Of a stretch of 11,947 nt of DNA, positions 1 through 11,947 are shown in pieces. Origin of the DNA: PVC group bacterium (GTDB lineage: Bacteria > Auribacterota > Erginobacteria > Erginobacterales > Erginobacteraceae); NCBI GenBank assembly GCA_043804695.1, contig JAZDIV010000055.1:1-11947 (forward strand), written 5' to 3'. The notes below the pieces were generated by a model that was not told the origin of the DNA, made no database searches, and saw only the letters and a program-made list of their open reading frames with translations. A program made the translations under genes and the position numbers. Positions within the stretch are counted from its first letter, which is position 1. The number at the start of each line of letters is the position of its first letter.

Positions 1-3
1 GGG

Positions 4-85
4 CGAAGCAATCTATTTTTTCATTCATAACCACCTCTTATCCAAAATGATGAGATTGCTTCGTCGCTGCGCTCCTCGCAATGAC
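4..85. repeat. Inverted pair of REP/RPE-like palindromic units (left unit cut by window edge)
   Basis: cgaagcaatct (4-14) is a perfect inverted repeat of agattgcttcg (53-63). The minus strand of 53-85 reads GTCATTGCGAGGAGCGCAGCGACGAAGCAATCT (translates RHCEERSDEAIS), a type of short interspersed palindrome I recall from many bacterial genomes. Confidence 0.7.
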
Positions 86-114
86 CTCTAAAATGCCTAA
101 AATCTGAATTATCG

Positions 115-297: not shown

Positions 298-386
298 CAA
301 TGTGAGTGTTCAGGGCGCCAGTATCGAAATTTTAATCAAGTTTTTCTGAAAGAGATTCCGTAATCCGGAAAAATTTATTGGGACCA

Positions 387-425
387 ATAAACTTTTGCGC
401 CGAAGGCGCTGAACTTCAAAGGAGG
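387..425 (+). promoter_or_regulatory. Leader hairpin (element end-motif variant) plus Shine-Dalgarno
   Basis: ATAAACTTTT-GCGCC-GAA-GGCGC-TGAACTT resembles the motif before folE, rnfG, rnfC and the small basic protein. AAGGAGG at 419-425 precedes ATG 431. Confidence 0.55.
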
Positions 426-3660: not shown

Positions 3661-4221
3661 CTACGAATTTCTCAAAAGGCTCAACGCCTCCGCCCGCGTC
3701 CTCTCGTCGCGGCGGAAGTTTCCCCGGACCGCCTCGGTCTTGACCAGAGTGCCCGGTTTTTTCACCCCCCGCATATTCATGCAGAGATGTTCCGCTTCGA
3801 TCTGAACCAGGACGCCTCGCGGGCGAAGTTTTGCCATCAAAAGGTCGGCGAGTTCGGTTGTCATCCGCTCCTGAACCTGCAGCCTCCGGCTGAAGAGTTC
3901 CACCACCCTGACCAGAGTGCTGAGACCGGTGATCTTGCTGTCCTTCGGGATGTAGGCGATATGGACCCGGCCGAAAAACGGGAGGAGGTGATGCTCGCAG
4001 AGCGAATAAAACGGGATGTCCTTCAGAAGAACGATCTCGTCAAAACCCGGGCAGGGGAAGACCCTGATTTCCCGGGCGATATCCATCCCCACTCCCCCCA
4101 GTATCTCCCCGCACATCTCGGCCACCCGATCCGGGGTTTTCCGCAAACCGGGGCGGGACGGATCTTCTCCGACAGCCGTCAGCAGGTCGCGAACCGCCTT
4201 CTTGATCTTTTCTTTATCCAT
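3661..4221 (-). CDS. folE: GTP cyclohydrolase I
   Basis: GEDP.RPGL.KTP.RVA, SLCEHHLLPFFG, RRLQVQERMT, EAEHLCM.MRGV motifs; Zn-ligand Cys/His/Cys present. Confidence 0.96.
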   Translation of the reverse strand: MDKEKIKKAVRDLLTAVGEDPSRPGLRKTPDRVAEMCGEILGGVGMDIAREIRVFPCPGFDEIVLLKDIPFYSLCEHHLLPFFGRVHIAYIPKDSKITGLSTLVRVVELFSRRLQVQERMTTELADLLMAKLRPRGVLVQIEAEHLCMNMRGVKKPGTLVKTEAVRGNFRRDERTRAEALSLLRNS

Positions 4222-4419
4222 AAATTAACGCCTTCGGCGCTACTTTATACTGGCCCCCCGACTGATTCAGTCGGGGGGCTGCTGGTTAATTAAAATATTT
4301 TCACCGAGGCAACACGATAAAATAGCCCTCTAACCAGCCACTATTTTACCATATGGAATATAATTTATCAGTCGGCTTCAGATATACCATTCTTATTTTT
4401 CGCAGAAAAAATAAGATTA
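4222..4419 (-). mobile_element. Bipartite hairpin intergenic element, copy 1 (unrecognised family; MITE-like or structured RNA)
   Basis: End hairpin tcttatttttc-gca-gaaaaaataaga (4391-4416). Conserved block 4222-4348 is homologous to 7518-7637 and 10518-10620. Mobility is inferred from dispersal only. Confidence 0.6.
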
Positions 4420-5207
4420 TCCAAAGAAAAAATAATATTCCGGGGGCAGACCTCAATACACTTACCACAACTGACACACTTCTCATAATCGATTTTTGCC
4501 AGGTTGTTCGCCAGCGTAATGGCCCCGACCGGGCATTCCTTCACGCACTTGCCGCAGCCGATACAGCCGACCGAGCAGACCTTGACGACGTTCTTCCCTC
4601 TGGCCAAGGAGGAACAGAGGATATCCACCCGGGATTGAGAAGGAACTATCCTGATTATCTCCCGGGGGCAGTGCTGCACGCAGAGCCCGCAGGACCGGCA
4701 CTTTTCCGGGACTACCACGAAATTTCCCCGCTCGTCGATCCGGATCGCGTCAAAGGGGCAGATTTTCCAGCAGGTGTAATACCGGAGACACCCGTCATCG
4801 CAGGCGGAAACACCGCCCCCGATCTGGTTGGCCGCCGCGCAGTTCTGGATCCCTTCGTACTCATACCGCCGGGCGGCGTCATGGCCCCCCCGGCAAAAGA
4901 TCCGGGCCTCCAGCTTTTCTTCCTCTTCCAGCATCTTCCCCAGAAGCTCGGCGATCTCCCGGCGGGCTTCCGGGGGAGCGACCGGACAGACCGATGGTTC
5001 GGCCTTTCCGTCCAGTAACGCCCGGGCGCAGTCCGCGCACCCGCCGTACCCACAGGCCCCGCAGTTGAGCTGGGGGAGCAGTTCCTCGATCTTCTCCAGC
5101 CGGGGATCGAGGTGGACAAAAAAGACCCGGCTGCCCACGGCCAGACCCAGCCCGAAGATCAGCCCCATTCCGCCGATCATGATGACCGCTGCCAGGATTT
5201 CCGTCAT
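4368..5207 (-). CDS. rnfB: Rnf electron transport complex subunit B
   Basis: N-terminal TM anchor, LP..NCGACGY.GC..CA FeS domain, several CxxCxxCxxxCP ferredoxin motifs, last gene of rnfCDGEAB. Confidence 0.95.
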   Translation of the reverse strand: MTEILAAVIMIGGMGLIFGLGLAVGSRVFFVHLDPRLEKIEELLPQLNCGACGYGGCADCARALLDGKAEPSVCPVAPPEARREIAELLGKMLEEEEKLEARIFCRGGHDAARRYEYEGIQNCAAANQIGGGVSACDDGCLRYYTCWKICPFDAIRIDERGNFVVVPEKCRSCGLCVQHCPREIIRIVPSQSRVDILCSSLARGKNVVKVCSVGCIGCGKCVKECPVGAITLANNLAKIDYEKCVSCGKCIEVCPRNIIFSLDNLIFSAKNKNGISEAD

Positions 5208-5325
5208 ATTATTCTTTGAACTCCGGGAATCAATACCCTCCGGGTGAATCGTGCTAATCGTTATTCAGCCACAGAAATAAATCCCAAATTACAAATTGAA
5301 TAAACAAATAATCCTTACCAGAGAT

Positions 5326-5982
5326 TTATATAAGACCCGAAAACCCCAGAAACGCCATCGACATCAGGGCGGCGACCAGAAAGGCGATCGGCGCCCCGCG
5401 CAGAGCCGGGGGGACGTCGGCCAGTTCCAGCCGCTCCCGGATCGACGCCATCAGGAGCAGGGCCAGGGTGAACCCGACCCCGGCCCCGAACCCCTGAACC
5501 AGGCATTTTAACAAGCTCCCGGAGACGGCCTCCCCTCCTTTAAAGAACGTGTCTATGTTCAGCACGGCCACCCCGAGAACGGCGCAGTTGGTGGTGATCA
5601 GGGGGAGGAAGATCCCGAGCGCCCGGTAAAGAGCAGGACTGCTCTTGGTGATCACCATCTCCACCAGCTGCACCAGGGCGGCGATGACCAGGATAAAGGC
5701 GATCGTCCGCAAATAGCTGAAGTCGAAAGCTGAGGGGTCGAGCCCATCCCCCCAGAGGCAGAACCAGAGGTTATGGTGTGTCGGGGCCAGGAGATAGTGA
5801 TAGATGAGCCAGGTGGCGGCGGCGGACATCGTCATCACGAAGATAACCGCCAATCCCATCCCGGCGGCCGACTTCAGGTCCCGGGAGACCCCGATGTAGG
5901 GGCAGAGCCCCAGGAAACGGACCAGGACGAAATTGTTGACCAGGACCACCCCGATGAAGACGATGAACAGTTCTCCGATCAT
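5326..5982 (-). CDS. rnfA: Rnf electron transport complex subunit A
   Basis: [58 protein letters not shown] motifs. Confidence 0.97.
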
Positions 5983-6114
5983 GACATTTCAGTAATTCAT
6001 TCCCTACAGACGATTAGTTCAATTACCCCCCCACCCCGCACCCTTTTTTAACAGACGATTTGAATGTGATTGAATAGGATTTCTTCCCTCTACCTCGACC
6101 CCATTCGTTCGATG

Positions 6115-6153
6115 CCCGCGGCGGGTAAATTCGATATTTATCCCGCCTGCGGG
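6115..6153. repeat. Imperfect inverted repeat built from two CCCGC..GCGGG mini-palindromes
   Basis: cccgcggcgggtaaat (6115-6130) pairs with attta-t-cccgcc-t-gcggg (6136-6153), with two unpaired bases. Confidence 0.65.
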
Positions 6154-6183
6154 GTTGAGTTTTTTCCATCCATTGATCACCGA

Positions 6184-6795
6184 TTACTGATTACCGATCT
6201 CAGCCTCCTTTGCCTCGCGCCGGGAGCGGATGAGAGCGAATAACCCCAGGAGAAGACCGATGGTCAGGAAAGCTCCCGGGGGCAAAATCATGATCATGGC
6301 CGGCCGGAAGCCCGGGACCAGTGCGTAACCGAGCAGCGTGTTCGACCCCAGGATCTCCCGGATCGCCCCCAGCAGCATCAGGGAAAGAGTGAACCCCACA
6401 CCCATCCCCAGGCCGTCAGCCAGGGAAAGCAAAACCGGGTTACGGGAGGCGAATGCTTCCGCCCTTCCCAGGATGATACAGTTGACCACGATCAGGGGGA
6501 CAAAGAGCCCCAGACTTTTGTTCAGGCCGGGGAGGTGCGCCTCCAGGAAAAGCTCCACCAGGGTGACGAAGGTGGCGATGACCACGATAAAACAGGGGAT
6601 CCGGATCTTTTTAGGGACGCCCTGCCTGATCAGGGAGACGATCAGGTTGGAGAAGGCCAGGACGAAGGTCGCTGCCGCCCCCATCCCGATCGCATTGGAG
6701 ACGGAGGTCGAGACCGCCAGGGTGGGACAGAGCCCGAGGAGCAGAACGAAGACCGGGTTCCGCTTGAACAGCCCTTTTGTAAAATCACTGATCAT
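6184..6795 (-). CDS. rnfE: Rnf electron transport complex subunit E
   Basis: NPVFVLLLGLCPTLAVS, IRIP.FIVVIATFVT, PLIVVNCIILGRAEAFA, IREILG, LPPGAF motifs. Start set at ATG 6795 (MISDFTKG) from typical family length; in-frame alternatives at 6798 (GTG), 6888 and 6915. Confidence 0.95.
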   Translation of the reverse strand: MISDFTKGLFKRNPVFVLLLGLCPTLAVSTSVSNAIGMGAAATFVLAFSNLIVSLIRQGVPKKIRIPCFIVVIATFVTLVELFLEAHLPGLNKSLGLFVPLIVVNCIILGRAEAFASRNPVLLSLADGLGMGVGFTLSLMLLGAIREILGSNTLLGYALVPGFRPAMIMILPPGAFLTIGLLLGLFALIRSRREAKEAEIGNQ

Positions 6796-6807
6796 CACTG
6801 TCTGTCT

Positions 6808-6865
6808 CACGGGAAAGCACGGAAGAGCACGGAAGAGCATGGAAGAGCACGGAAGAGCACGGAAA
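6808..6865. repeat. 10-bp tandem repeat (CACGGAAGAG), about 5.8 units
   Basis: cacgggaaag cacggaagag cacggaagag catggaagag cacggaagag cacggaaa. Confidence 0.95.
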
Positions 6866-6893
6866 TCACCCGCCTCTTCCCTTCTCATCCCTG

Positions 6894-7517
6894 TTATTCC
6901 CCTTGCTCCTTCCATTGCTTCAGGAACACTTCCACGCTTTCCCGGACCGCGTCCGTCACCGCCCGGCTGGTGATGGTGGCCCCGGTTAAAGCCTGAATGT
7001 CGGTATCGGTCTTCCCGGTCACCACCTTCAGTTCCTTGAGCATCTTTCCGGCAAACTGGGCCTCAAACCAGGGCCGGGCCGCCTCCTTTCCTTCGCCCCG
7101 GCCCAGAAGGGCCTGCCAGAAGGTGCGGGTACTGGGGACCTCGACCGCCTTGGTGCCCAGGCCCGGGGTCTCTTTCTGCTCCACGATCTTGATCCCGATT
7201 ATCGTGCCGTCCGGGTCAATCCCCACCATCACCTGGATAAGGCTGCTGTATCCCTTGGCCTCCCCCGAAAAAGCGAACCCCACCAAACGATCATCCCGGT
7301 CCAGCCCCTCGTAATAATCCATCGATTCCCCCCGCTTCCGTTCGGAAAAATAGGCCGCTTGCGGGAGCACTACCCTGAGGGCCTGAATCTGCTCCTCTCC
7401 GGCTCTCTTCTCAATGGCGCTCCTGGTCAGGTGATAGCCGACCGCCAGAGCGGTCCCGGAGATCAGACAGATCGCCATCAGGATAAGCCCCAGTTTATAG
7501 ATCTTCTCCTTCCCCAT
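6894..7517 (-). CDS. rnfG: Rnf electron transport complex subunit G
   Basis: N-terminal TM helix, GYSS.IQVMVGI, ETPGLG, WF..QF.GK, FMN-attachment motif TGATITS. Confidence 0.95.
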   Translation of the reverse strand: MGKEKIYKLGLILMAICLISGTALAVGYHLTRSAIEKRAGEEQIQALRVVLPQAAYFSERKRGESMDYYEGLDRDDRLVGFAFSGEAKGYSSLIQVMVGIDPDGTIIGIKIVEQKETPGLGTKAVEVPSTRTFWQALLGRGEGKEAARPWFEAQFAGKMLKELKVVTGKTDTDIQALTGATITSRAVTDAVRESVEVFLKQWKEQGE

Positions 7518-7929
7518 ATAAATTAGCTCGCTGCGCTCGCTACTTTATAATGGACCCGACTGCGTCGGGTCTGTTGGTTAACTAAGATATTTCACCGAGG
7601 CAACATGATAAAAAAGCCTTATAACCTCATATCTTAGCCCGATTTATTCATAAATCGGGTTAGTTTTGAACCATGACAAAGATTAAATGAATAGCCACAC
7701 GAAAAGATATTGATTTTATTATTTTCTCCGGCAATGAATTATAGCCAAAGGTCTATTTCTGCCGGCAGCGTTAACAAAAAGAATACCATGTTGTCCTTCC
7801 GGAGAAGAAAAAGCAGAGTGCTATAGCCGTATAAACAAGATTGCTATTCCTAATACATTGAACGACAATTATTAACCTGTCGGCATTAAACATACCATTC
7901 TTATTTTTTCGTAGAAAAAAATAAGATTA
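7518..7929 (-). mobile_element. Bipartite hairpin intergenic element, copy 2 (long form with AT-rich interior)
   Basis: End hairpin tcttattttttc-gta-gaaaaaaataaga (7899-7926), preceded by gtcggc..ataccat shared with copy 1. Conserved block 7518-7637; extra hairpin 7635-7662. Confidence 0.6.
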
Positions 7930-7932
7930 TTG

Positions 7933-8022
7933 TGCGCCAAAGGCGCATCTCCTCCCGAGGCGGATCTCCTCCCGAGGCGGATCAGCCTCAGGCTGAAGCC
8001 TCAGGCTGAAGCCTCGGGCTGA
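7933..8022. repeat. Cluster of tandem mini-palindromes
   Basis: tgcgcc-aaa-ggcgca (7933-7947); atctcctcccgaggcgg x2 (7947-7980); agcctcRggctga x3 (7984-8022). Confidence 0.9.
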
Positions 8023-8037
8023 AAATTCCGAAACAGT

Positions 8038-8094
8038 TATTTAGCGCCTTCAGCGCAGATTTTTAGTTTAAATTTTTTCGCAGAAAAAATTTAA
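8038..8094 (-). repeat. Minimal derivative of the intergenic element (both end motifs juxtaposed)
   Basis: Perfect 12-bp stem ttaaattttttc-gca-gaaaaaatttaa (8068-8094) includes the rnfD stop. It is followed on the minus strand by TAAAAATCT-GCGCT-GAA-GGCGC-TAAAT. Confidence 0.6.
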
Positions 8095-9083
8095 GTGCCG
8101 AAAATCCGGGGCCGGACGAACTTGTCGATCAGGGGGGTAAAAGCGTTCATGATCAGAATCGAATAGCAGACGCCTTCCGGGAACCCCCCGTAGAGACGAA
8201 TGATCGCGGTAATCAGACCGCAGCCGAGACCGAAGATCAACATGCCGGTTCCGGTTACCGGAGACGTGACCATGTCGGTGGCCATGAAGATGGCGCCCAG
8301 CAGAAGACCGCCCCCCAGAACGTGATGGTAGGGAGCGAACGCGATCGCCCCCTCCCGGGCGGGGAGCACCCAGGTCAGAAGCGCCACCGTTCCGATAAAG
8401 GAGACCGGGGTCTGCCAGCGGATATAACCCCGGATCAGGAGGAACAAGCCCCCGATCAAGAGGGCGAGAGCCGATGTTTCCCCGATGCAGCCACCGATAT
8501 TGCCCCAGAACATGTCCATTGTTGAAAACACCCCGCCCGGAGAGGGGACCAGGGCGGCCACCCCTTCCTTGGCCGCTCCCAAAGGAGTGGCATAGGTGAG
8601 CGCGTCGACCCCGGCATAGAGGGCGGTCCGGGGAGGGGACCAGGTCGTCATCTGAGGGAGCCAGGAGTGCATCACGAAAACCCGGCCGACCAGGGCCGGG
8701 TTGAAGATGTTGCGCCCCAGACCCCCGAAGGCCTGTTTCCCCACGGCAATCCCGAAGGCGGCACCGACCGCCGGGAGCCAGAGCGGGACCCCGGCCGGAA
8801 GATTGAAAGCCAGCAGCAGCCCCGCCACCGCCGCGCTGCCGTCGGAAACGGTGACCGGGCTCCCCCGCAGCTTCTGAATCAGCGCCTCGGTCAAAATCGC
8901 CGTGACGACCGCGACCACCTCGATCTGAAGGACCTTGAAGCCGAAAAAATAGAGACTGGCCAGGAGTGCCGGAAGGAGGGAGATGACAACCGCCCACATG
9001 ATCCGGGGGATCGTCTCACCGCCGTAAAGCTGGGGGGCGGGAGAGACCTGAAACAATCTGTCTTTTTGATTCTTACCGGACAT
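8091..9083 (-). CDS. rnfD: Rnf electron transport complex subunit D
   Basis: IMWAV...LLPA, DGSAAVAGLLLA..LP, KQAFGGLG.NIFNPALVGR, FMN-site D..TYATPL, GCIGETS, AIFMATDMVTSP, PEGVCYSILIMN motifs. Confidence 0.97.
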   Translation of the reverse strand: MSGKNQKDRLFQVSPAPQLYGGETIPRIMWAVVISLLPALLASLYFFGFKVLQIEVVAVVTAILTEALIQKLRGSPVTVSDGSAAVAGLLLAFNLPAGVPLWLPAVGAAFGIAVGKQAFGGLGRNIFNPALVGRVFVMHSWLPQMTTWSPPRTALYAGVDALTYATPLGAAKEGVAALVPSPGGVFSTMDMFWGNIGGCIGETSALALLIGGLFLLIRGYIRWQTPVSFIGTVALLTWVLPAREGAIAFAPYHHVLGGGLLLGAIFMATDMVTSPVTGTGMLIFGLGCGLITAIIRLYGGFPEGVCYSILIMNAFTPLIDKFVRPRIFGT

Positions 9084-9132
9084 TACTCTTTAATACTCAC
9101 AAGGTATGATCAGATCTATTCAAACATTCGAC

Positions 9133-9207
9133 TGGAGTGTTGGAGTAATGGAGTGCTGGAAAGCCGGCCCCCCCCATCACTCCAATACTCCACCACTCCA
9201 TTACTCC
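9133..9207. repeat. Inverted arrays of octamer TGGAGTRN
   Basis: tggagtgt tggagtaa tggagtgc tgga (9133-9160) face cca tcactcca atactcca ccactcca ttactcc (9174-9207). The last unit contains the rnfC stop. Confidence 0.9.
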
Positions 9208-10517
9208 CTGTTTTTATTTTTTAAAGCCTCTTTTCCCAGCTTGATCAGCTGGACCAGGTCCCGGCCGGCCGAACAGACGTAGGCGCAGCAGCCGCACTCG
9301 ATACAATTGTTGCCCCCCAGTTTTTCAAAATCCCTCCACCGCTCCTTCTCAACCAGCGTCCCCAGGTCGCTGGGGATCAGTCCCATCGGACATGACCGCA
9401 GACAGTCGCCGCACCGGATGCAGGGCAGGTTGCGCTCCCGGGAGATAGCCCGCATCACCAGCAGTCCCGAGGTGCCCTTGATGACCGGGGTGGCAAGACT
9501 CGCCTGGGCAATCCCCATCATGGGGCCGCCGGAGAGCACCCGCAGTTCCCCCCCGGGGATGCCCCCGGCCGCCTCCAGGAGGTACTGGAAGGGGGTACCG
9601 ATCCGGACCCGGAAATTCCCGGGCTTTTTTACTTCGGAGCCGGTGACGGTGACCACCCGGTCGATCAGCGGCTTGCCGGCGAAAACCGCCTCGGCAATCG
9701 CCACCGCAGTCCCGACATTCTGAACCACGCACCCGACCGCCGACGGGAGGCCGCCGGCGGGGACTTCCCGGCGAAAAAGGGAATAGATCAGCTGCTTCTC
9801 CGCTCCCTGGGGGTACTTGACCCGGAGCAGCCGGATCCGGATATTCTTCTCCTTATGGACCGCGGCCTGAAGCTTGTAAAAAGCGTCCATCTTGTTGGCC
9901 TCGAGCGCGATCACCCCCTCCCGGGCCCCGACAGCCCGCATGATCAGGCACAGACCGTCAAGCATCTTTCCCCCTTCTTCCAGCATCAGGCGGTAGTCAA
10001 CGGTCAGGAAGGGTTCGCATTCCGCCCCGTTGATAACCGCGTACTCGATCTCGGTGCCGGCGGGGGGACTGAGCTTGACCTGGGTGGGAAAGCCGGCGCC
10101 GCCCAGACCGACAATGCCGGCTTCAGCCACCCGTTTCCTGATGTCATCCGGGGAGAGCCGGGAAATGTCCCGGAGAGGAGGCATCCGGCGCCGGGAAGAG
10201 ACCGCCGGGTCAGTCTCGATCTCGATCGCCGGGGCATCCGGTCCGGCGGGAGAGGGAAACGCGTCTAGCACGGTCACCGTCCCGGAGACGGACGCGTGCA
10301 GGGTGGAAGAGACCGGGCCGGACGGCTCGGCGATCACCTCGCCCTCCTCGACCTTGCGGCCGTCTTCAACCACCGGCCGGGGGGGAGTTCCGGCATTCTG
10401 GTTCAGGGGGATGACGACCCGGGGAGGAAGCAGCAGTTCCCGGATCTTCTTCCCTTCCGTCAGCTCCTTGTATCCGGGGATGTGGATCCCCCCTTTGAAT
10501 GTCGGGAATGTGGTCAT
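9201..10517 (-). CDS. rnfC: Rnf electron transport complex subunit C
   Basis: TFKGGIH, IPL.Q..G, HASVSG.V, AGIVGLGGAGFPT.VKL, NGAECEPFLT.D.RLM, KYPQGAEKQLI, GGPMMG, CIRCG.C...CP and CIECGCCAYVC motifs. Confidence 0.97.
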   Translation of the reverse strand: MTTFPTFKGGIHIPGYKELTEGKKIRELLLPPRVVIPLNQNAGTPPRPVVEDGRKVEEGEVIAEPSGPVSSTLHASVSGTVTVLDAFPSPAGPDAPAIEIETDPAVSSRRRMPPLRDISRLSPDDIRKRVAEAGIVGLGGAGFPTQVKLSPPAGTEIEYAVINGAECEPFLTVDYRLMLEEGGKMLDGLCLIMRAVGAREGVIALEANKMDAFYKLQAAVHKEKNIRIRLLRVKYPQGAEKQLIYSLFRREVPAGGLPSAVGCVVQNVGTAVAIAEAVFAGKPLIDRVVTVTGSEVKKPGNFRVRIGTPFQYLLEAAGGIPGGELRVLSGGPMMGIAQASLATPVIKGTSGLLVMRAISRERNLPCIRCGDCLRSCPMGLIPSDLGTLVEKERWRDFEKLGGNNCIECGCCAYVCSAGRDLVQLIKLGKEALKNKNRE

Positions 10518-10704
10518 TATAAATTAACTCGCTGCGCTCGCAAATTTATAATTGGCTCCGACTTCGTCGGAGCTGTAGCTTAAACTAAGTTATTTCCTTC
10601 GAGGCTACACGCTAAAAAGACTTTTGGCGACCCGGGACAATATTGCCTTTTTAGGATGATAATTATTTATACATTCTTATTTTTGCGCAGCAAAAATAAG
10701 ATTA
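10518..10704 (-). mobile_element. Bipartite hairpin intergenic element, copy 3
   Basis: Perfect 12-bp end hairpin tcttatttttgc-gca-gcaaaaataaga (10675-10701) abuts the SH3-gene stop. Conserved block 10518-10620 abuts the rnfC ATG. Confidence 0.6.
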
Positions 10705-11796: not shown

Positions 11797-11836
11797 CCTC
11801 CTTAAAATAAATTAGCGACCTTCGGTCGCAAATTTA
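11797..11836 (-). promoter_or_regulatory. Leader hairpin (element end-motif variant) plus Shine-Dalgarno
   Basis: Minus strand TAAATT-T-GCGACC-GAA-GGTCGC-T-AATTTA (11836-11808), then AAGGAGG and ATG. Confidence 0.65.
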
Positions 11837-11947
11837 GTTACTTATTGCGGGTTATACTATTCAAACCGGTAACAGTCGGATGATGTACGGGGATTAGTTC
11901 GAATTCTATTGTACAAGAAGTGACATTTAACCCTTTAGATTTTAAAC

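Follow-up and report, generated by a model that had tools for sequence, protein, structure and literature searches.

A dispersed five-hairpin repeat at stop-to-start junctions of the rnfCDGEAB–folE operon in a PVC group bacterium

We analyzed an 11,947-bp stretch of DNA, hereafter the window, which is the whole contig C55 (JAZDIV010000055.1) of a metagenome-assembled genome (MAG) from a PVC group bacterium (GCA_043804695.1, here G000; 2.97 Mb in 155 contigs, 57.8% G+C). Three AT-rich inserts lie on its minus strand upstream of folE, rnfG, and rnfC, in the same orientation as the genes, at the positions given in an earlier note made from the sequence alone. Comparison with related genomes demonstrated that these units are insertions into ancestral tight junctions, and alignment of further copies established that the canonical unit measures about 200 nt and comprises five hairpins, H1 to H5. 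We consider it reasonably probable that the inserts are copies of a selfish, lineage-restricted, non-autonomous modular mosaic repeat of the BIME/NIME/BOX/MIRU/REP2 kind, which resides in mRNAs and is tolerated there through its own stop-side and start-side hairpins.

To place the inserts in evolutionary context, we compared orthologous junctions across relatives, taking junction lengths as gap estimates and also comparing the junction sequences for X–rnfC (X being an SH3-domain gene), rnfD–rnfG, and rnfB–folE. The rnfD–rnfG junction is 1–2 nt long (TGAcgATG type) in G002, G004, G005, G006, G007, and G008 and a 4-nt overlap in G010, versus 573 nt in G000 and 274 nt in its congener G001. The X–rnfC junction measures 4 nt in G004 and 184 nt in G000, with different modules in G001, and the rnfB–folE junction measures −8 to 25 nt in G010, G012, and G004, 146 nt in G000, and 149 nt, with a different interior, in G001. 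Each of ten junctions was tight in some genome and expanded by 100–1,000 nt in another, often by other repeat families. Because the same rnf junctions are 1–13 nt long in sister genera, the window units represent insertions, and the empty orthologous junctions that the earlier note had proposed looking for were indeed found. No target-site duplication was detected between filled and empty X–rnfC, rnfD–rnfG, and rnfB–folE junctions; the native stop-to-ATG spacer is replaced, and the downstream ATG remains at its native codon, as in relatives, for all three window genes. The only flanking direct repeat, 8–9 nt long (ATATAAAT), surrounds one 5'-truncated copy in G001.

The relevant genes all lie on the minus strand and comprise a small basic protein gene (PVC type, TIGR04137), the SH3-domain gene X, rnfC, rnfD, rnfG, rnfE, rnfA, rnfB, folE, and a second rnfC-like gene. 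NCBIfam confirmed rnfC, D, G, E, A, and B together with folE, and the gene order from the small basic protein gene to the gene after the second rnfC-like gene is kept in ten relatives.

The three inserts have the common 5' start (T/C/G)AATCTTATTTTT..AAAAATAAGAATG and share a 3' block of about 105 nt, and this block ends at or within 3 nt of the ATG of folE, rnfG, and rnfC, all as the earlier note had reported. At folE the block end is TAATTTATG, which overlaps the ATG by 2 nt, and at rnfG and rnfC it is TAATTTAT and TAATTTATA, respectively, each followed directly by ATG. A profile hidden Markov model (HMM) built from the three copies scored them at E = 4.5e-31, 1.2e-29, and 4.5e-26. Their GC stems (H4 in Table 1) differ in sequence and are all fully paired, which agrees with the pairing that had been claimed for them; an extra G–C pair described in the end hairpin of copy 3 was not reproduced, its core being equal to that of copy 2 except for one G–U closing pair. 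Against a covariance model (CM) of the block, copies 1, 2, and 3 scored 126.8, 111.4, and 85.1 bits. The best partner elsewhere in the genome is 96% identical for copy 1, likewise 96% for copy 2, and only 79% for copy 3, which is an older copy.

The inserts had been described as filling their junctions from stop to start. In copy 3 the TAA (10702–10704) is the stop codon of the upstream gene; in copy 1 the element TAA (4417–4419) is out of frame, and rnfB runs 17 codons into the element; RnfB of relatives ends in RNIIFRV and a stop. The supposedly variable interior of copy 2 proved, by blastn and inspection of its flanks, to be a nested copy of another dispersed repeat, family B, which joins the H2 5' arm of copy 2 at a CAG microhomology and has no family B 5' hairpin. 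Given this nested insertion, the bipartite anatomy originally proposed is too simple, and the unit is better described by its five hairpins.

We derived the hairpin anatomy from an alignment of 28 units combined with single-sequence folds. On the coding strand, the order from 5' to 3' is H1, H2, H3, H4, and H5. H1 (TCTTATTTTTTC-loop-GAAAAAATAAGA) is AT-rich and sits on or directly after the upstream stop; H2 consists of AGCCRACA, about 25 nt, and then TGTTGGCT; H3 is the region around the nearly invariant TGTTGCCTCGGTG; and H4 is CCCCCGAC-loop-GTCGGGGG. H5 (TATAAAGTAGCGCC-GAA-GGCGCTAATTTATA) is a long palindrome of the form TATAAA–GC stem–TTTATA that ends 0–3 nt before the downstream ATG or just before a Shine-Dalgarno sequence, and its frequent variant core, GCGAGC-GCA-GCGAGC, pairs with tandem G·A/A·G. 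H1 was found within 3 kb upstream of 65 of 130 blocks, and in 40 of these 65 the distance from H1 to the block end was 185–240 nt. The element has no conserved open reading frame (ORF), since ACG, GTG, or GCG replaces the ATG after H1 (AAGAATG) in other copies. Terminal inverted repeats are also absent: the 5' end of the element, (C)AATAATCTTATTTTTT, and its 3' end, GCTAATTTATA, are not inverted copies of each other.

The modules recur alone, stacked, nested, and in different combinations. H5 stands alone before the small-basic-protein gene of the window (Table 1) and at 11 further G000 sites, and G001 carries the full 3' block at the site of this lone window H5. A short form of H1 plus H5 occurs after rnfD, where the earlier note had correctly recognized an ends-only form, and on contig C52. 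H1 leads into at least two different interiors, and stacked modules are seen, for example, in the 573-nt rnfD–rnfG junction. The AT hairpin of the short form contains the rnfD stop TAA (8091–8093), and the congener G001 has the same hairpin on the rnfD stop with both arms changed in a compensatory manner (ACTTAA..TTAAA in G000, ACGTAA..TTACGT in G001). A plus-strand pair of an AT and a GC hairpin near the start of the window follows the same module logic as the minus-strand forms.

We also observed a mini-hairpin of about 25 nt (CCCCGATTAATGCTTCGGGGCGGGGCG and relatives; CCCCGATT..AATCGGGG), H4-like in character, which sits in the H1 loop at G000 sites C40:24010-24257, C23:28569-28820, C142:8554-8813, C9:15833-16086, and C32:5758-6011 and in the H5 loop of one G001 copy (L125). 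From these sites, hairpin loops seem to be insertion points for further hairpins.

To assess structural conservation, 81 copies of the 3' block from G000, G001, G003, and G004 were aligned with the CM. Standard pairs filled 97.9% of the cells, a value reached by 0 of 500 column shuffles, which gave 86.2%. The shuffle test overstates this signal, because the model itself guided the alignment and the copies share ancestry. Changes on both sides were found at 16 of 17 pairs, consistent with the earlier statement that diverged copies retain base-pairing, and slid controls were only 26–45% paired. In H1, double changes gave UA and GC at one pair and UA, CG, and GC at the loop-closing pair, and in H2 the same pair occurs as A–U, G·U, and G–C. 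The loop and center of H5 covary rather than being conserved, which favors a single-strand hairpin over a double-stranded protein-binding site. A possible long-range helix linking the 3' arm of H1 to the U-run that precedes H3 was dropped, as it was seen in one subfamily and contradicted by another, and A/U runs overwhelmed a column-pair scan aimed at additional helices.

Several features distinguish the two strands. Copy 1 folds at −68.9 kcal/mol (z = −5.35) on the sense strand and at −56.4 kcal/mol on the opposite strand, an advantage of 12.5 kcal/mol for the sense strand. Mismatches in H5 comprise 129 of the G·A plus A·G type versus 3 of the C·T plus T·C type; stem mismatches comprise 28 G·T versus 10 A·C, which is weak evidence because the scoring favored G·T. 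The sense bias in orientation, the G·U pairs of H2, the recurrent G·A pairs of H5, and the energy advantage of the sense strand favor a role on the coding strand, and the mismatch asymmetries could also stem from subfamily founder effects.

The family is abundant in G000. Searching the genome with the three-copy HMM retrieved 280 matches at E ≤ 10, 131 at E ≤ 1e-3, and 81 of full length, so that the further genome-wide copies anticipated by the earlier note exist far beyond chance. The 3' end was reached by 130 of the 131 hits, and the 5' start varied, with 73 hits starting at HMM positions 0–9 and 27 at positions 70–79, that is, at H5 only. When each copy was compared with its best partner, the median identity was 0.88, and 15 of 75 copies reached 0.95 or more; the median over all pairs was 0.73. 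Across the phylum, CM matches were obtained in 5 of 41 genomes (at least 88 in G000, 50 in G001, 27 in G003, 5 in G004, and 1 in G006), and the CM found no member in the other 36, among them four of five genomes from genus g2, which belongs to the same family. The repeat family is thus lineage-restricted and contains both young and old subfamilies.

Copy counts in G001 call for some care. The loci L103, L104, and L139, and likewise L137 and L138, are near-identical over gene start and element and occur in two or three copies on different contigs. Together with a stated contamination of 8%, these loci suggest that G001 may mix strains and that its copy counts may be inflated.

In public collections, the exact H5 core was present in 64 metagenome contigs, standing before an ORF start in 37 of them, in the same two offset classes as described below for G000. 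The H3-core pattern matched 0 metagenome contigs and two H5 variants matched 0 viral contigs in these collections. In lower-G+C relatives among the metagenome loci (L228, L248, L250, L252, L259, L260, L277, and L282–L286), a recurring module of about 70 nt precedes the H5 core. It contains sigma-70-like hexamers (TTGAAA..17..TAGAAT type, by eye) and ends in GGTTCAAAACT, which also ends family B in window copy 2.

We then examined the position of the unit relative to genes, using crude ORF heuristics for the gene calls (an ORF/GC3 caller for orientation). An ORF of at least 60 aa starts at −3 to +33 nt after 109 of 130 blocks, compared with 556 of 1685 in a random control. Two offset classes stand out among these 109 blocks: 72 lie at −3 to +3, which leaves no room for a Shine-Dalgarno sequence, and 24 lie at 11 to 19, typically retaining AAGGAGG. 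No GGAGG was found between H5 and the ATG in the 72 copies of the first class. The folE gene illustrates the exchange, with AGGAGG before its ATG in G004 and only the H5 foot in G000. The downstream gene is co-oriented with the unit in 77 of 93 cases, and of 84 upstream genes, 58 point toward the element and 26 are divergent, which indicates that units occur within operons as well as in 5' leaders. On the H1 side, a long-ORF stop lies directly before H1 at 18 of 129 H1 sites and at the TAA within the H1 3' arm at 14, against a random expectation of about 0.2% per base. General sequestration of the start codon by H5 was rejected, as the ATG falls within the H5 stem in only 26 of the 121 hairpins having an ORF.

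Comparison of the two congeners demonstrated turnover of the unit at orthologous sites. A G000 ortholog of the downstream gene could be identified for 28 G001 copies. G000 has the full block at the same place in 8 of these, H5 only in 11 (with other modules or nothing upstream), and no H5 in 5, three of which show an AT-rich hairpin beside the ATG; a further 3 map to a single G000 site arranged H5-H4-H5, and the last is the rnfG junction, where G000 holds the fuller copy. At rnfD–rnfG, the only parts common to G001 and G000 are the first hairpin and the last palindrome. Among seven orthologous pairs with the full block in both genomes, 3'-block identity was 0.69–0.76 in six and 0.96 in one, and 4-fold sites beside these seven pairs were 0.47–0.69 identical. 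These counts indicate that occupancy of the start site is more stable than the occupying sequence and that H5 is the most persistent module.

How such a repeat might persist in an operon can be outlined from its position. Lying inside the operon, the unit would be transcribed within the operon mRNA. At tight junctions it would be tolerated for two reasons: an upstream gene clipped by the insertion would find stop codons in H1 and the bases behind it, and the AU-rich foot of H5 would allow translation to start from the native ATG even where a Shine-Dalgarno sequence is lacking. A further role of the hairpins in the RNA is probable, whether they insulate neighboring cistrons or serve as processing or stability signals between them. 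The most likely means of spread is copying of the copy-choice or gene-conversion-like kind between shared modules, with H5 as the anchor. This route is favored by the fixed 3' end with variable 5' extent, by the microhomology breakpoints (CAG in copy 2, ATATAAAT in G001), and by modules nested in loops; a dedicated cut-and-paste transposase seems less likely. We regard with considerable doubt a stronger version of this scheme, in which the unit is a mobile "operon-junction cassette" acting in RNA: H1 would serve as the end of the upstream cistron, H5, adjoining the AUG, would stand in for the Shine-Dalgarno sequence, for instance through cleavage to a near-leaderless mRNA or through ribosome positioning, insertion would rewire translation, and the unit would copy itself by 3'-anchored, hairpin-guided copying without a dedicated transposase.

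Among the alternatives, the one that survives best is a maintained cis-acting RNA device, in which H1 and H5, perhaps with the whole 200-nt leader, form an intercistronic expression cassette that spread because it is useful. H5 could then be an RNase III-type processing or 5'-stabilizing hairpin that yields near-leaderless, Shine-Dalgarno-independent mRNAs, and H1 might shield the upstream cistron at its 3' end. The block ends next to the ATG without room for a Shine-Dalgarno sequence, the replacement of AGGAGG at folE, the nearly constant sense orientation, the recurrence of sense-only features in H2 and H5, the covarying loop and central stem of H5, the placement of H5 before ORF starts in the metagenome contigs, and the 11 orthologous starts that retain H5 with a different remainder of the unit are all consistent with such a device. 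The full unit nevertheless occurs in few genera, and congeners differ in whether a given site carries it. Sister genera run the rnf operon with junctions of 1–13 nt. Six of the seven orthologous 3' blocks are moreover no more alike than random copies, and the mismatch asymmetries may have the founder-effect and scoring explanations given above. A device of this kind is possible, and we hold it to be rather unlikely. The earlier note had offered both a dispersed non-autonomous element at gene junctions and a recurrent cis-regulatory RNA; the first is supported, and the second is possible for the end hairpins and a poor fit for the whole unit, given the few genera, the polymorphism between congeners, and the divergence of orthologous copies.

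A second alternative, also raised in the earlier note, is a hairpin-ended non-autonomous element moved as single-stranded DNA by an HUH enzyme, whether of the REP/REPIN–RAYT, IS200/IS605 PATE, or IS91-type rolling-circle kind. The subterminal hairpins at both ends, the single orientation, and the fixed 3' end with variable 5' extent, as in one-ended rolling-circle transposition, would suit such an element, and G000 encodes six Y1_Tnp-like proteins as well as one broken IS91-like gene (Y2_Tnp). An HMM search for H1 or 3'-block modules within 1.5 kb of these genes found them at 0 of the 6 Y1_Tnp loci and at 0 of 1 IS91-like locus in G000. The left and right hairpins are also unlike, and no conserved target tetranucleotide was seen in the left flank, where TAA, TGA, TAG, or another module precedes H1. 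REP and REPIN sequences are short GC-rich palindromes with a conserved 5' GTAG/GTGG head, and many copies indeed carry GTAG at the 5' foot of the H5 GC stem, reading AAGTAGCGCC..GGCGCTA, but many others read AATTAGCG or AATTTGCG, with TTAG or TTTG in its place. The single RAYT-like gene of G000 (162 aa, Y1; C62:4265-7576, L001) is flanked on both sides by REPINs of its own, GTGGGAGGGG..CCCCGATC, which are unrelated to H1–H5. We therefore consider mobilization by an HUH enzyme very unlikely. The REPIN doublets at this gene, TGTGGGAGGGGTTTCCAACCCCGATC .. GATCGGGCTTAAAAAGCCCTCCCACA, represent a separate, classical REPIN–RAYT system in G000.

The search for a mobilizing enzyme was extended to other families in G000. 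TnpB (PF07282) gave 0 matches in this MAG, which is 88% complete. Eight 23S_rRNA_IVP (GxxExxY) genes are bordered by inverted short-unit arrays and not by the five-hairpin element; three GIY-YIG matches were obtained, of which the small one is bordered by CATTGCGA..GAAGCAATCTC repeats; and RVT_1 matched only a truncated ORF of the group II intron type, about 271 aa long and without neighboring element modules. The earlier note had suggested looking for long copies that enclose a nuclease, transposase, or reverse transcriptase ORF; the 25 H1-to-block intervals longer than 240 nt hold ordinary genes, stacked modules, or family B, with no nuclease or transposase among them.

A third alternative holds that the unit is a promoter-plus-terminator cassette, in which H5 or H1 terminates transcription, an internal promoter restarts it, and operons are split into separate units. 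The GC stem of H5 is preceded by an A-rich 5' flank and followed by a U-rich tail, and in a consensus scan the copy of H5 at the small-basic-protein gene scored as terminator-like, whichever strand was read; the promoter-like module recognized by eye before H5 in the metagenome loci points in the same direction. Correia and REP2 repeats are also described as carrying promoters in the portion of PMC3184786 that treats them. In the window, however, a promoter consensus scan yielded 8 sigma-70-like sites against 4.5 expected, none of them consistent across the three copies; two overlap H5 of copy 3, with the −10 element on the ATG. H1 has no following U-tract, and behind a terminator that ends 0–3 nt from the start codon there would be no space for transcription to restart, which makes this explanation highly improbable. 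A SINE-like (short interspersed nuclear element-like) retro-element spreading through RNA has the faintest prospect of all: it would explain the sense-only orientation and the 5'-truncated copies that retain their 3' ends, and G000 has one reverse transcriptase gene, but this gene is the truncated intron-type ORF just mentioned, no poly-A or other priming signature was seen, deletions, with selection retaining the start-proximal end, account for the 5' variation just as well, and the single and nested modules fit recombination.

Several points weigh against a selfish mosaic repeat, the explanation that we prefer. H5 alone is more widely kept at orthologous gene starts than the rest of the unit and looks more like a maintained signal, and its placement before ORF starts in the metagenome contigs, in the same two offset classes, argues in the same direction. 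The 0–3-nt precision at the ATG is sharper than random insertion followed by selection easily explains, and it may reflect a targeting mechanism or a real start-site function. No partner enzyme for the element was found among the Y1_Tnp, TnpB, GxxExxY, GIY-YIG, RVT_1, and Y2_Tnp genes of G000; a trans-acting enzyme may be unassembled, since the MAG is incomplete, and several G000 copies lie at contig ends. To these points are added the crude gene calls behind the position and orientation counts and the fitted alignment of related copies behind the covariation figures.

We next compared the five-hairpin family with known repeats. No Rfam family, HEARO-type models included, matched the elements when Rfam 15 was searched with all families at E ≤ 1, in keeping with the earlier note, which could match the inserts to no family known to it; the only matches in the window at this threshold were spurious miRNA and IRES hits at a palindrome outside the elements (2295–2362). 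No description of the family was found in the limited body of literature searched, and PMC9324843 contains no mention of "repeat", "palindrom", "intergenic", or "hairpin". The family behaves as a blend of the REP2, MIRU, and mosaic BIME/NIME/BOX kinds, and what is unusual is its combination of features: a stop-to-start unit, almost only in sense orientation, without a Shine-Dalgarno sequence, in about a hundred copies per 3-Mb genome.

In the sections of Delihas 2011 (PMC3184786) devoted to them, REP2 of Neisseria and IR-A/IR-B of Borrelia plasmids are presented as dispersed repeats of 120–180 bp without terminal inverted repeats, with internal stem-loops, and directly upstream of unrelated ORFs, and REP2 is said to contain a promoter plus a ribosome-binding site, along with an ATG. 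As far as that account goes, the five-hairpin unit resembles REP2 in lying directly upstream of ORFs, in its internal stem-loops, and in the absence of terminal inverted repeats, like a copied 5' leader. It differs in having no ribosome-binding site or detectable promoter, in using the gene's own ATG, in a copy number several times higher, and in reaching back to the upstream stop and sitting inside operons. MIRU, in the summary of Supply et al. 1997 given in PMC3184786, are intercistronic, lie in polycistronic mRNA, are absent at the homologous site in related species, and overlap adjacent genes with their ends; they measure 40–100 bp and have short ORFs and tetranucleotide direct repeats. 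Judged by that summary, the three window copies are similar in lying inside or at the head of rnfCDGEAB–folE, in the same orientation, with ends overlapping the stop and start of their neighbors, whereas the five-hairpin unit is 200 nt long and has no conserved ORF, and its only direct repeat is the one at the 5'-truncated G001 copy.

BIME/REP of enterobacteria, NIME (dRS3 plus RS) of Neisseria, and BOX (boxA-boxB-boxC) of pneumococci are likewise intergenic, non-coding mosaics of hairpin modules in hundreds of copies. They share no sequence similarity with the five-hairpin unit and are mostly 3' of genes or orientation-neutral, whereas the five-hairpin modules are anchored at the stop (H1) and the start (H5) and are 83–84% sense; REPs have a cognate RAYT, and the RAYT of G000 has different REPINs. 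Classical miniature inverted-repeat transposable elements (MITEs; Correia/CREE, ERIC, RUP) are similarly small, gene-less, polymorphic between close relatives, co-transcribed, and able to alter flanking expression, but they carry terminal inverted repeats together with target-site duplications, which are TA in Correia and ERIC, whereas the ends of the five-hairpin unit are unlike and no duplication accompanies the window copies. Membership among classical MITEs, REP–RAYT, or IS200/605 PATE elements was rejected, as neither terminal inverted repeats with target-site duplication, nor hairpins shared with a RAYT, nor tnpA/tnpB with the same ends were found. The intercistronic RNase III hairpins of phage T7 early mRNA and REP-stabilized operon mRNAs show that hairpins can cut or protect polycistronic RNA. 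They offer a possible working model only, since those hairpins are not dispersed repeats and the present element is known from its sequence.

Table 1. Copies, short forms, and associated features of the five-hairpin repeat in the window
Feature	Position	Strand	Remarks
Copy 1	4220..4419	−	rnfB–folE junction; canonical unit, ~200 nt
Copy 1 hairpins	H5 4220–4249, H4 4253–4279, H3 core 4302–4314, H2 ~4336–4378, H1 4391–4416	−	folE ATG at 4219–4221
rnfB 3' end, read-through of H1 into copy 1	4368..4419	−	tail ..NLIFSAKNKNGISEAD; stop TGA 4368–4370
Copy 2	7518..7929	−	upstream of rnfG; canonical unit broken at H2 by nested repeat
Copy 2 hairpins	H5 7518–7549, H4 7553–7571, H3 core 7593–7605, H1 7899–7926	−	H5 followed by ATG 7515–7517
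Nested family B copy inside copy 2	7625..7879	−	~255 nt; blastn
Short ends-only form	8044..8094	−	H1-type AT hairpin 8068–8094 and GC hairpin GCGCTGAAGGCGC 8044–8056
Copy 3	10518..10704	−	junction of SH3-protein gene X and rnfC; canonical type without most of H2
Copy 3 hairpins	H5 10518–10551, H4 10555–10573, H1 10675–10701	−	H5 adjoins rnfC ATG (10515–10517)
H5 alone	11805..11839	−	followed by AAGGAGG and the ATG of the small-basic-protein gene
AT hairpin 374–391 and GC hairpin GCGCCGAAGGCGC 397–409	374..409	+	21 nt before the ATG of ORF 431–1117

Other repeats were noted in the course of the analysis. Family B, the repeat nested in copy 2, is a second dispersed repeat of about 230–300 nt with at least 12 near-full copies on other contigs at 74–92% identity by blastn, including C40:34314-34544, C36:15164-15410, C117:1930-2165, and C96:4484-4729 in G000. 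Free copies start with a long perfect hairpin, TTAACCTGGATTATTCATGAAAATT..AATTTTCATGAATAATCCAGGTTA, and end in the hairpin AACCCGATTTATG..CATAAATCGGGTT. Family B has no match in Rfam; it might represent an RNA gene or a further mobile element. The rnfG–rnfE, rnfD–rnfG, and rnfC–rnfD junctions (window 6818–6864, 7948–8022, and 9134–9207) are filled by short, purine-rich sequences in head-to-head arrays, with the units CACGGAAGAG, GGAGATCCGCCTC/AGCCTGAGGCTTC, and GGAGTRNTGGAGT; arrays of this kind also border the 23S_rRNA_IVP (GxxExxY) genes of G000.

Hairpin repeats of the GAAGCAATCT..CATTGCGAG type lie at the contig start (window 1–110), and the same repeat type occurs in several copies on both sides of the small GIY-YIG gene (G000 C27:24480-27695). 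This gene and its repeat may constitute an Ssn-type nuclease with a cognate repeat, by comparison with the portion of PMC11893778 concerned with such pairs. The palindrome at 2295–2362 is near-perfect and 68 nt long (ATTTTTATCCGGGGGTGACAATC..GATTGTCACCCCCGGATAAAAAT), is bordered by A and T runs, and is found immediately downstream of the rnfC-like gene, with the next minus-strand gene following it; it resembles a terminator.

The usual view is that mobile DNA finds no room in tight operon junctions. In this genome, an essential respiratory operon, rnfCDGEAB, together with folE carries three stop-to-start inserts of 190–410 nt without a Shine-Dalgarno sequence, and its genes are intact. For work on MAGs, the repeats matter in that they break assemblies, as the copies at contig ends illustrate, and produce false C-terminal extensions such as the 17-codon tail of rnfB, and they could serve as fine-scale strain markers. 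If the end hairpins do confer tolerance, the unit would be a natural, portable "insulator" for joining cistrons, and it would offer a view on Shine-Dalgarno-independent initiation in an uncultured lineage of the PVC group.

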